Shown in pieces: positions 50,386 to 54,081 of a stretch of DNA of 64,000 nucleotides. A model generated the notes under the pieces. It did no database searches. It was not told the DNA's origin and worked only from the letters and a program-made list of their open reading frames with translations. Made by a program: the position numbers and the translations under genes. Each line of letters starts with the position of its first letter. The first letter of the stretch is position 1. Origin of the DNA: Escherichia coli. Lineage in GTDB: Bacteria > Pseudomonadota > Gammaproteobacteria > Enterobacterales > Enterobacteriaceae. The DNA is taken from the NCBI RefSeq assembly GCF_003018255.1, contig NZ_CP027440.1. One strand, written 5' to 3'.

Positions 50386-50727
50386 TTAATTCGGCATGGT
50401 TAGCCGTCTGGGAAATAAGCTCACCACTGCACGAAAATGATTCATTGCTTTAATCAACTCCCGCTTTTCGTCAGTGGTCAGCTCATTAATGCTGATGCTA
50501 TGACGTTCAGCTGGAATTTTTGCCATAAAGAATATGGCAGCCAGTGCCCGTTTATTTTGTTCGCTATTGATATCCCGTGGATCACGCATATCTTTAATAA
50601 ACCGCTCAAGCTCTGACTCAATATTCAGGCCAAAAACTTTCGCCCTTAACTCCGCAATGTGATTAAGTCCATTCAGGCGTTCACCGGGGCTTAATGGAAC
50701 AGTCGCCGCAGCGCCATTAATTGCCAT
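50386..50727 (-). CDS. Hypothetical early-region protein (113 aa)
   Basis: ORF in the operon with no recognisable motif. Confidence 0.5.
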   Translation of the reverse strand: MAINGAAATVPLSPGERLNGLNHIAELRAKVFGLNIESELERFIKDMRDPRDINSEQNKRALAAIFFMAKIPAERHSISINELTTDEKRELIKAMNHFRAVVSLFPRRLTMPN

Positions 50728-50749
50728 AATTCATATCCCCAAAACGCAA

Positions 50750-50974
50750 CTATCGTTCTTTGTTCTTACGGTAACGTTCAAGAGGAGATACATTTTTTCG
50801 TATCGTCTCTTTAACCTGCTCTCCCCGTAAAAACGTCCCATCCTTTAGCGTGAAAAAGTAACTGCCATCGCCCGACAACGACGGATAACAACAGAGCAAA
50901 TCATCTTCAGGTACTGAATAACTCTCCCCTCTGTAACGAAACTGATAAACCACTTCACTTTCCGCTGCATACAT
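50750..50974 (-). CDS. Hypothetical early-region protein (74 aa)
   Basis: Good RBS GGAGAAAG 7 nt upstream of the ATG. Confidence 0.55.
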   Translation of the reverse strand: MYAAESEVVYQFRYRGESYSVPEDDLLCCYPSLSGDGSYFFTLKDGTFLRGEQVKETIRKNVSPLERYRKNKER

Positions 50975-51141
50975 TTTGACTTTCTCCGTTTCCCCGTGGT
51001 CAATTCAGACAGCAATTCATCTTGTGAACGGCACGGATGCCAGCGTTTACCATCCTTACCCATGATCCAGCCGTGACCGTAGTGCATTGCCGGGCTTTGT
51101 TTTACCAGCAGCGATGCAAATGATGGTTCTTTCGTCAGCAT
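50845..51141 (-). CDS. Hypothetical protein directly after cII (MLTKEPSFASLL...); 3' part overlaps the next ORF out of frame
   Basis: ORF 50845..51171 trimmed to the Met that follows the cII stop; the C-terminal third looks non-native. Confidence 0.35.
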   Translation of the reverse strand: MLTKEPSFASLLVKQSPAMHYGHGWIMGKDGKRWHPCRSQDELLSELTTGKRRKSKCMQRKVKWFISFVTEGRVIQYLKMICSVVIRRCRAMAVTFSR

Positions 51142-51148
51142 AAGCACC

Positions 51149-51658
51149 TCACAGCAAACCGAATGAAGCACCGAGGCCAGTCACGGTATCAACTGCACTC
51201 GCCATCGCAGGATTAGCCTGTAAACGGGCCTGCAATGAAACAGCCGCCAGCGCCATCAGTCGTGTTACAGAGTTAATGCTGCTGATAGCATCACGACGAC
51301 CTGCACTGGTTTTTACATCGCCAGATACCGCACCTGCCGCGACACGTCCTATCTCTGCAGTTGCACTCATGACGTAATGCGGCAGTTTCTCTTTTGCTAC
51401 CTCATTAATCGGTACACATGGCAGGCAGTGAATCTGTGCCAGAAAACCATCTACCAGCGTTGAATCTTCAGTCAGATCGGTAAGCAACCAAATTTCTGGT
51501 GCGGTTAATAAATGAGGTTGAGCTGGGTTCAGTTTGTTCCGCAGAATCTGCACATTCATGCCTGCACGTTCTGCCAGTTGCACCAGATTGTGGCGCAGTG
51601 CGAATGCACGACAGGCTTCATCAAAATGTGGATGTTTGGAAACTTGGTAATCAAACAT
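51149..51658 (-). CDS. cII: CII-like transcriptional activator (phage 186 CII family)
   Basis: Close resemblance to 186 CII as I recall it ([10 protein letters not shown]...[26 protein letters not shown]...). Confidence 0.8.
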
Positions 51659-51722: not shown

Positions 51723-51926
51723 TTAAGCAGACAAAGCATCAACAGTCAGAGCAGCCAGGTTAATCATTACCTTTTCACGTTTTTTGTCTTTACGAAGACG
51801 ATGACGAGGTAGTCGGCCATCAGCCAACATGTCGTTAATCGTATCAATAGAAAGGCCAGTCAGTTCGCTATAACGTTCGATTGTGACATGTGGTGTATTC
51901 AGAGTAATTGAAATGTTAGGTGTCAT
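51723..51926 (-). CDS. apl: Apl/Cox-like excisionase and transcriptional regulator (67 aa)
   Basis: Small HTH protein, first gene of the lytic operon, divergent from cI. Confidence 0.65.
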
Positions 51927-52071
51927 AAGGCAACATTCCTTCTAGATATGGCTTGTGGCGAGCCGTTGTTTGTCGTGATTAGTAGTGAAGGCTCCAAAAG
52001 AACACTTCTGGTTCAACTTTAAGATCTCTTTTGGAATCTGTCAACGAATTTTGGATTTCTTTGGAGGACTT
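51927..52071. promoter_or_regulatory. Lysis-lysogeny switch region between apl and cI (pR/pL and operators expected here)
   Basis: Position only, by analogy with 186; no operator sites were resolved. Confidence 0.4.
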
Positions 52072-52641
52072 GTGGATTTCAATAGCGGCGGTAAGAAAGC
52101 CATAGAACGTTTAGTTGAAGCATATGGGTTCGGTACCCGTCAGGCTCTCTGTGATCATTTAGGTGTTTCTAAGAGCACCATGGCAACGCGCTATATGCGT
52201 GATATTTTTCCAGCAGATTGGGTAATCCAGTGCGCCCTTGAAACGGGCACCTCGCTTAATTGGCTAACAACAGGGCATGGTTCAAAGCAAGCATCAGCAA
52301 ATACAAATACTATGGAAGTTGCTAAATATGTATTATCTGATGGGGCCTTGTGTGAAGACGGTTTTTATATTTTCGATAGGGAATTTCTACCGTCGGCATT
52401 CAAGAATATTTTTGCAATCACAGATAATAATTCTGAATTTGTTTGTGATAAGGAATTTGATGATATACGTGATGGTAAATGGGTAATAAGTATTGATGGC
52501 GAAATAACGATCCGTGACATTACTCGTTTACCCGGTGGAAGAATCTTCGTCGAGGGTGGAAACAGAGCCTTCGAATGCAAGATAGAAGACATTGAAATAA
52601 TTGGTAAAATTATAAGTTTAACAGTCAAGTATGTTAAATAG
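52072..52641 (+). CDS. cI: CI-type immunity repressor (186 CI-like, ~189 aa)
   Basis: ORF 51985..52641; start reassigned to a GTG preceded by GGAGGA; HTH region [29 protein letters not shown]. Confidence 0.75.
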
Positions 52642-52657
52642 TACCGGGAGGAAAACT

Positions 52658-52849
52658 ATGCTTGGTAAGGTATTTTTTGTGGTTTTGTCATGTTCTTTGT
52701 TATTAAACCCACTAACTACCTATGCTAGAAATTATCCCTGTTCAGGGAAAAAGGGAGGTGTTTCTCACTGTACCTCAGATGGCAAATTTGTTTGCAATGA
52801 TGGAACTATTAGTAAATCCAAAAAAATCTGTACTAAAAACTCACGATAA
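52658..52849 (+). CDS. Small secreted cysteine-containing protein (63 aa precursor), cargo between cI and int
   Basis: RBS GGGAGGAAAA; signal peptide [23 protein letters not shown] with an AxA-like cleavage site; mature part has 4 Cys. Confidence 0.5.
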
Positions 52850-53037
52850 CTTTTGCTTTTATATCTGCGCCTAAAATAAAAATGAGCCGCAGGTTAACCG
52901 CAAAAATTACATGCTCACATAGCAAAAAGAATAGCCAACTTAATTATGGCTTCAGTGAGATGTATGGTCGTAGGATTTCATACATTGACACTGGTTATAC
53001 ATACAGTGAAAATGCTCTCTACTGGAGGGCATTTTTT

Positions 53038-54081
53038 ATGGCAGTACGAAAACTAACCACAGGGAAATGGCTTTGCGAATGTTACCCCGCCGGACGCAGC
53101 GGGCGTCGCGTGCGTAAACAGTTCGCTACCAAAGGCGAAGCATTAGCTTTTGAGCGTCACACGATGGAGGAGGCAGAAGCTAAGCCTTGGCTTGGTGAAT
53201 CGGTAGACCGTCGAACTCTACAGGATATCGTTGAACTCTGGTTCAAACTGCACGGCAAATCCCTGACCGCTGGCGAGCATGTTTACGACAAGTTGATACT
53301 GATGGTCGATGCTCTCGGAAATCCCCTCGCCACCGATCTAACATCCAAAATGTTCGCGCACTATCGCGATAAGCGCCTGACGGGTGAAATCTACTTCAGC
53401 GAAAAATGGAAGAAAGGAGCCAGCCCGGTAACTATCAATCTGGAGCAAAGCTATCTGAGTGGGGTCTTTAGCGAGTTAGCCCGACTCGGTGAATGGACAG
53501 CACCAAATCCACTGGAGAACATGCGTAAATTCACCATTGCCGAAAAAGAAATGGCCTGGCTGACACATGAACAAATCACAGAGCTTCTGTTCGACTGTCA
53601 ACGCCAAAGCCCCCTGCTCGCTCTTGTCGTCAAAATCTGCTTGAGCACCGGAGCACGTTGGCGCGAAGCTGTGAACCTGACACGTTCTCAGGTCACGAAA
53701 TACCGAATCACATTTGTCAGAACTAAGGGCAAAAAAAACCGCAGCATTCCGATCAGCAAAGAGCTGTATGAGGAAATTGTTGCCCTAGACGGCTTCAAAT
53801 TATTTACTGACTGCTACTTCCAGTTTTTAGCCGTGATGGATAGAACCTCGATCGTACTACCACGCGGGCAACTTACCCACGTTCTACGCCATACGTTCGC
53901 AGCACATTTTATGATGTCCGGCGGGAACATTCTTGCTTTGCAAAAAATCCTGGGCCACCACGATATAAAAATGACTATGCGCTATGCACATCTTGCCCCT
54001 GATCACCTTGAAACAGCACTGCGTTTCAATCCATTAGCCACACTTTCCACTAAAGCAACGAACCTTGAAGCAAACAGCTAA
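53038..54081 (+). CDS. int: Tyrosine integrase (P2/186 family)
   Basis: ORF 52882..54081 trimmed to MAVRKLTTGKWLCECYPAG...; C-terminal catalytic region HVLRHTFAAHF...MRYAHL. Confidence 0.9.
   Translation: MAVRKLTTGKWLCECYPAGRSGRRVRKQFATKGEALAFERHTMEEAEAKPWLGESVDRRTLQDIVELWFKLHGKSLTAGEHVYDKLILMVDALGNPLATDLTSKMFAHYRDKRLTGEIYFSEKWKKGASPVTINLEQSYLSGVFSELARLGEWTAPNPLENMRKFTIAEKEMAWLTHEQITELLFDCQRQSPLLALVVKICLSTGARWREAVNLTRSQVTKYRITFVRTKGKKNRSIPISKELYEEIVALDGFKLFTDCYFQFLAVMDRTSIVLPRGQLTHVLRHTFAAHFMMSGGNILALQKILGHHDIKMTMRYAHLAPDHLETALRFNPLATLSTKATNLEANS

Follow-up and report, generated by a model that had tools for sequence, protein, structure and literature searches.

The window analysed here (the whole 64-kb stretch of Escherichia coli DNA) carries a P2/186-like prophage, in which two ORFs on the minus strand, ORF1 and ORF2, overlap downstream of cII. 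The two ORFs belong to the early lytic operon of this prophage, which is of 186 type (Peduoviridae) and has the gene order apl, cII, fil (ORF1), ORF2, DUF5347 and onward. The following features were identified:

52882-54081, plus strand: integrase
51985-52641, plus strand: CI repressor
52016..52044, minus strand: pR-like promoter, TTGACA-17-TAAAGT, from a consensus scan
51723-51926, minus strand: apl/cox
51149..51658, minus strand: cII (CP76 family), the upstream neighbour of fil; Pfam PF06892 Phage_CP76, E = 3e-42
50845..51141, minus strand: fil ORF (ORF1), 98 codons and stop; Pfam, PHROG 32377, RefSeq Fil family protein
50986..51141, minus strand: Fil core, codons 1-52, conserved by pN/pS and alignment
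50845..50985, minus strand: Fil-frame tail, codons 53-98, RKSKCMQRKVKWF...TFSR, without conservation
50984..50987, minus strand: Shine-Dalgarno sequence (SD) of ORF2, GGAG, inside the fil reading frame, read from the sequence
50750..50974, minus strand: ORF2, 74 codons and stop, MYAAESEV...; homologues, pN/pS, AlphaFold2, PHROG 4312
50845..50974, minus strand: out-of-frame overlap of fil and ORF2, 130 nt, from the ORF coordinates
50716..51009, minus strand: mosaic segment of ~294 bp with the divergent fil 3′ end and ORF2, from the Cartapus alignment
50386..50727, minus strand: DUF5347 gene, next downstream; Pfam PF17282, E = 3e-33

ORF1 starts at the ATG at 51141, 8 nt beyond the cII stop, and ends with the TAA at 50845-50847; its protein begins MLTKEPSFASLL. 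ORF2 extends from the ATG at 50974 to the TAG at 50750-50752. The third base of Fil codon 56 is the first base of the ORF2 ATG, and with respect to fil, ORF2 is read in the -1 frame. A preliminary description of this DNA had reported an out-of-frame overlap of 130 nt between two ORFs following cII, with a good ribosome-binding site in front of the second. Both observations held: the coordinates were confirmed to the base, and the GGAG lies 9 nt 5′ of the ORF2 ATG.

RefSeq gives the same 510-nt cII gene in relatives. The DUF5347 gene starts 22 nt past the ORF2 stop, and beyond it lie DUF2732, TraR/DksA, DUF3850 and dam homologues. The promoter-like site is placed where the phage 186 record has pR, the early lytic promoter of 186-type phages, and, judged by its consensus and placement, would drive apl-cII-fil-ORF2. 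On the plus strand no ORF of at least 30 codons was present between 50750 and 51141, and no Rfam family matched the locus. No significant RNA structure was predicted around the ORF2 start or hiding its ribosome-binding site (fold z = +0.78), and terminator-like matches inside ORF2 were weak and no more than expected by chance. A 72-codon ORF (52631-52849, plus strand) separates the CI repressor from the integrase. It has a hydrophobic N-terminal segment and several Cys, returned no Pfam match, and is possibly a moron for a small secreted protein or a lipoprotein. In phage 186, unlike the window, int follows cI directly.

Fil and its C-terminal tail

ORF1 matched the Pfam family Phage_186_Fil (PF10893, formerly DUF2724) with 78.1 bits against a cut-off of 25. 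The match covered residues 5-59 only, corresponding to profile positions 1-54 of 56. By HMM and synteny, ORF1 is a Fil family member, one that is atypically long through read-through. The fil gene is found directly downstream of cII in the window, in its relatives and in phage 186, which is the position of the family. Its length did not follow expectation, with 98 residues against the typical ~62-75 and ~39 extra residues outside the profile. Lengths within the family ranged from 55 to 112 aa, 66 aa being the commonest, and the long forms (98-112 aa) occurred only where ORF2 follows.

The N-terminal ~50 residues of phage 186 Fil (NP_052282, 75 aa) are near-identical to those of the window protein (MLxxEPSFASLLVKQSPxMHYGHGWIxGKDGKRWHPCRSQxELL). 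As in the window, fil of phage 186 is situated directly after cII in the pR operon and runs out of frame into the next gene. The two differ in their tails: the window protein has 98 residues compared with 62-75 in phage 186 Fil and PF10893, and its tail derives from a different downstream gene, with an overlap of 130 nt. According to a note in the phage 186 GenBank record, Fil would block cell division when overexpressed. A literature search on phage 186 fil and dhr gave nothing useful, and statements on the function of Fil and Dhr are therefore based on GenBank record notes.

Purifying selection was detected in Fil core codons 1-44 (pN/pS 0.18 in eight divergent lineages), and conservation in the protein alignment reached approximately residue 50. 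The conserved Fil unit is some 50-55 residues long, and the remainder appears to evolve like unselected sequence. The C-terminal third of the upstream ORF had been described as non-native, and this agrees both with the extent of the Pfam match and with near-identity to canonical fil, which ends at ~51010. A shorter upstream gene had also been proposed. Functionally this is supported by the short core under selection, but no stop codon closes it.

The 46-residue tail contains 12 K+R and one D+E, and tail length differs among relatives. In many Fil tails in the alignment, Trp or Cys recurs after the basic stretch, which is forced by the reading of xxA-TGN across the downstream start codon. In the AlphaFold2 model of the 98-aa Fil the tail forms a single long helix with pLDDT near 90, a value to be read beside a pTM of just 0.37 and the frequent over-scoring of isolated helices. 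With no stop codon to close the core, translation presumably continues to the full 98 residues.

The gene that follows fil

Apart from Edwardsiella tarda, in which it ends with a clean stop, fil lacks a stop of its own and its frame runs into whichever downstream gene recombination has placed there. The 75-aa fil of phage 186 extends 14 nt into dhr. The 66-aa fil of Escherichia phage Cartapus extends 37 nt into the DUF5347 gene, and the C-terminal KWLLKALRRLFH of its product arises when MAIEGAAATVPL is read out of frame. Where an ORF2 homologue directly follows fil in prophages, overlaps of 4, 20, 79, 130, 166, 172 and 178 nt were recorded, with Fil lengths of 65, 61, 81, 98, 109, 111-112 and 107 aa, respectively. 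Edwardsiella tarda has a 62-aa Fil, then a 130-aa gene, and the ORF2 homologue 450 nt further on. The 130-aa gene (locus L085, 2094-2486) had no Pfam match and is another variable cargo gene in the slot. A clean end of the upstream gene before the ribosome-binding site of the next, which the preliminary description had suggested looking for in orthologues, was found only in distant relatives, namely locus L091 (4-nt overlap) and Edwardsiella, where ORF2 is elsewhere; it was not found in close relatives.

Elveevirus-type phages such as Cartapus, with the canonical 66-aa Fil, share the flanking cII and DUF5347 genes with the window. They lack ORF2 and have DUF5347 directly after fil, whereas the window has an extra ~290 bp with ORF2. 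The window and Cartapus DNA were ~99% identical up to 51010 (fil codon 44), then diverged, and realigned only in the DUF5347 N-terminus. Many E. coli and phage matches stopped at query positions 191-215, equivalent to 50986-51010 of the window. Taken from these alignments, a mosaic cassette of ~290 bp carries the divergent fil 3′ end together with ORF2.

Other changes were seen downstream of ORF2. An extra gene of 81-82 aa, on the opposite strand, lies between ORF2 and DUF5347 in L088 (2716-2964, minus strand), L089, L090, L092-L094, L096, L101-L103 and L109. It had no Pfam match and is absent from the window, where ORF2 and DUF5347 are only 22 nt apart. In E. coli WCHEC050613 (L104, 774-1101) an IS1 element truncates the DUF5347 gene just downstream of ORF2.

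In phage 186 the slot right after fil is taken by dhr, which is similar in size to ORF2 (66 against 74 aa) and whose product inhibits host DNA replication. As with ORF2, the 3′ end of fil covers the start of dhr. The preliminary description had pointed to a region of host-interference genes, and ORF2 does occupy the dhr slot, though it is not a Dhr homologue. A BLASTP comparison of ORF2 with phage 186 Dhr gave no alignment at E <= 100. The two genes have no detectable sequence similarity, and the comparison permits no functional inference. The position of ORF2 in the dhr slot suggests that it may be an accessory early protein acting on the host.

ORF2 as a separate gene

ORF2 is a real gene encoding a conserved small beta-rich protein. 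Homologues at 53-80% identity were found in related prophages, and 37 homologous clusters were recovered. The family has a near-invariant core (CCYPSLSGDGSYFFTLKDG..FRGEQVKEV) and 21 invariant alignment columns, and the ORF2 peptide includes the stretch GESYSVPEDDLLCCYPSLSGDGSYFFTLK. A profile search of 1.8 billion proteins detected ~15 more small homologues, of 65-76 aa. ORF2 aligned with PHROG 4312 end to end (residues 1-74 of 74, E = 3.7e-53) and is a member, without difference, of the group represented by PHROG 4312 and UniProt A0A0K4J859, an uncharacterised 74-aa protein. The exact ORF2 sequence was present on at least 1000 public contigs, labelled "hypothetical protein". An AlphaFold2 model of ORF2 had five strands and one helix (pLDDT 83.5, core above 90). 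A purine-rich SD was kept 5-10 nt before the ORF2 start in 12 lineages, and the Edwardsiella homologue stands alone, away from fil. Searches of ORF2 against Pfam, NCBIfam and PADLOC returned nothing meaningful, the sole match being a sub-threshold NCBIfam hit (16 bits, cut-off 200), and a fold search returned no convincing relative.

The ORF2 profile also matched giant Ig-repeat proteins (P0158, P0160, P0162-P0164 and P0170) via the strand motif PS..(E/G)DGSYFFT. In P0170, the DGSYFFT-type motif sits within bacterial Ig-like (Big_13) repeats. We treat this apparent likeness as one at the level of the motif only.

Eight full-length E. coli chromosomal loci were retrieved (L001, L002 and L104-L109), and in six of them RefSeq annotated the 98-aa Fil without ORF2. 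Among the 13 full-length matches of the spread list, 12 had the 98-aa Fil alone annotated. Most RefSeq annotations thereby imply that ORF2 is spurious and the 98-aa Fil the sole gene, and a stop inside ORF2 in one Citrobacter lineage could be taken in the same sense. We consider this very unlikely. The ORF2 frame is under purifying selection at saturated synonymous sites, stand-alone homologues do not overlap fil, and the confident fold prediction, the conserved SD and the further small homologues from the profile search all argue for a gene. The Citrobacter stop is an in-frame TAG at codon 39 (GDGS*YFTL) in the ORF2 homologue of Citrobacter freundii contig SRR6321502_457 (L101, 1665-1889), where the overlapping 111-aa fil ORF is intact. 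Sister Fil proteins of 111 aa (P0050, P0051, P0054 and P0055) imply an intact ORF2 in their own genomes.

Two RefSeq genomes departed from the common pattern. In SF-173, Fil is a partial pseudogene and the 74-aa hypothetical protein (ORF2) is annotated, and in 2014C-3075, Fil is partial and ORF2 unannotated. The read-through fil ORF leads gene callers, the NCBI pipeline included, to report just one of the two, the 98-aa Fil or ORF2. Because callers choose one ORF, a conserved, well-folded 74-aa early phage protein is missing from most of the RefSeq E. coli genomes that carry it. Both proteins, and their arrangement, are already in public databases.

The overlap and its origin

Each of the 80 close IMG/VR relatives had the arrangement of 98 and 74 codons, as did each of the 10 relatives (E. 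coli and Klebsiella phage) that were chosen by DNA similarity. The exact 98-aa Fil protein was found on 55 public contigs, and 594 of 5426 complete E. coli genomes held at least 80% of the 501-nt query. In divergent lineages with saturated synonymous sites the phase of fil relative to ORF2 was the same. The frameshift considered in the preliminary description is contradicted by these 90 close relatives, by the contigs with the exact protein and by the phase retained in divergent lineages. Frameshifted versions of the locus do exist in public assemblies (CP019275, P0017, P0046 and P0047), but the chance that the window lost a fil stop through a recent frameshift mutation, or through an indel error in sequencing or assembly, is virtually negligible, with the 98-codon ORF in hundreds of independent assemblies and the phase kept in lineages just 62-71% identical in DNA.

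A common E. coli variant (L100, 1501-1891) is a derived frameshift form with a 1-nt deletion at window position ~50996, just 5′ of the ORF2 ribosome-binding site. Its Fil is 61 aa long and ends 20 nt inside an intact ORF2, and this form is listed in 141 index blocks of a public assembly collection. The truncated variant shows that loss of the Fil tail is compatible with retention of ORF2.

A 129-aa Fil::ORF2 fusion, P0017 (12 member sequences), was traced to a 2-nt loss in the GGGG run at 50925-50928 of the window and is probably a mutation or an assembly error, not recoding. The presence of this fusion in databases, together with the -1 frame of ORF2, would be compatible with programmed -1 ribosomal frameshifting that joins Fil to the C-terminal part of ORF2. 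Such recoding is extremely unlikely, given that P0017 differs from the window by the two missing bases, that no X XXY YYZ slippery heptamer occurs in the fil frame, that RNA structure was not significant (z = +0.8) and that ORF2 has its own conserved start and SD.

Selection in the overlap was estimated by the Nei-Gojobori method, pooled over pairs, from nine sequences spanning 53-100% ORF2 identity. In the ORF2 frame, pN/pS was 0.24 inside the overlap (pS 0.78) and 0.31 outside it (pS 0.70). In the Fil frame it was 1.9 inside the overlap, and 1.3 in the same off-frame outside. The key test of dual coding fails, as synonymous change in ORF2 is not reduced where fil overlaps it. In lineages with a DNA identity of 62-71%, the proteins read from the same 129 bases were compared with those of the window: amino-acid identity was 58-67% for the ORF2 reading and 21-44% for the Fil reading. 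The 80 close IMG/VR relatives (36 haplotypes) had 12 variants in the overlap, eight altering Fil only and two ORF2 only. These loci had been picked by ORF2 similarity, and the count was redone on 11 sequences picked by DNA similarity, giving seven Fil-only, three ORF2-only, three affecting both and one affecting neither. The divergent relatives were likewise found mostly via ORF2 similarity, which favours ORF2 conservation; free of this bias are the synonymous-rate comparison and two loci with intact ORF2 that were found via Fil (L102 and L103). These comparisons indicate that selection acts on the Fil core and on ORF2, and within the overlap on the ORF2 frame only.

When ORF2 was recoded at random with synonymous codons, 50-70% of trials gave a fil frame without a stop over 130 nt or more (50-56% with E. 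coli or local prophage codon usage, 70% with ORF2-family usage), and the median overlap was exactly 130 nt. A stop in the fil frame is possible only where the codon after a Leu, Ile, Val or Met of ORF2 has A or G as its first base, and there are few such sites before Leu43-Lys44. The fil frame runs on for 130 nt because the amino-acid sequence of ORF2 permits few stops in it. When nine lineages were compared, L096 alone was unusual (P = 0.01-0.04), the other eight having P >= 0.12. Four divergent lineages had overlaps slightly above the median obtained by random recoding. An overlap as long as that in the window is not beyond chance.

The fil/ORF2 pair fails all three tests of dual coding, namely synonymous rate, selection in the second frame and open length. 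Like the overprinted gene pairs of small phages and viruses, the two ORFs share bases in different frames; unlike them, they show no signature of selection in two frames and overlap by a length expected by chance. The preliminary description had listed overlapping coding as one possibility, and this applies physically, but only the ORF2 frame is under selection. True dual coding, with the Fil tail and ORF2 both functional and the 130 nt selected in two frames, would account for both ORFs being open in all 90 close relatives, for the recurrence of long overlaps in divergent lineages, and for every version of the tail being basic, hydrophobic and predicted to be helical. We nevertheless regard it as distinctly unlikely. 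Along with the undiminished pS of ORF2 in the overlap, the pN/pS of the Fil frame and the low identity of the tails, the Fil stop ranges from 4 to 178 nt into ORF2, the truncated Fil of 61 aa is common, the overlap is as long as chance gives, and the recurrent Trp or Cys is imposed by the ORF2 start codon.

All of the tails seen were basic and hydrophobic, including KWLLKALRRLFH in Cartapus, GFLIIRIVHFVIKGVKHVTR in phage 186 and the 46 residues with 12 K+R in the window. Fil might need only a generic basic, hydrophobic and helical C-terminus, perhaps for access to the membrane or to the division apparatus, and read-through would supply it. This is unlikely in our view; if true, each swap of the downstream gene would give Fil a new tail. 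A related possibility is that translation of ORF2 is tuned by ribosomes that pass over its start site while reading fil.

We suggest that the read-through of fil into a conserved ORF2 is very probably an ordinary by-product of phage gene shuffling and that the tail is unselected. On this explanation, fil encodes a core of ~50 residues without a stop of its own, and its reading continues out of frame into the downstream gene until chance supplies a stop. ORF2 is a separate 74-codon gene, carried on the mosaic cassette of ~290 bp with its own ribosome-binding site. Both proteins would be made from the pR transcript, and the 40-odd residues of the Fil tail would be an unselected, probably tolerated appendage. 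The 98-codon frame open in 90 of 90 close relatives counts against this explanation, as do the somewhat long overlaps of the four divergent lineages, the helix modelled for the tail and the Citrobacter lineage with a stop inside ORF2.

The practical value of these findings is in annotation, and the understanding of phage gene overlap is unchanged by them. The Fil family includes long members whose last third is not Fil, and for studies of Fil, residues 1 to ~52 are the conserved unit. ORF2, an uncharacterised small protein in the host-takeover slot of 186-type phages, could reasonably be included in a screen for toxicity or host interaction.
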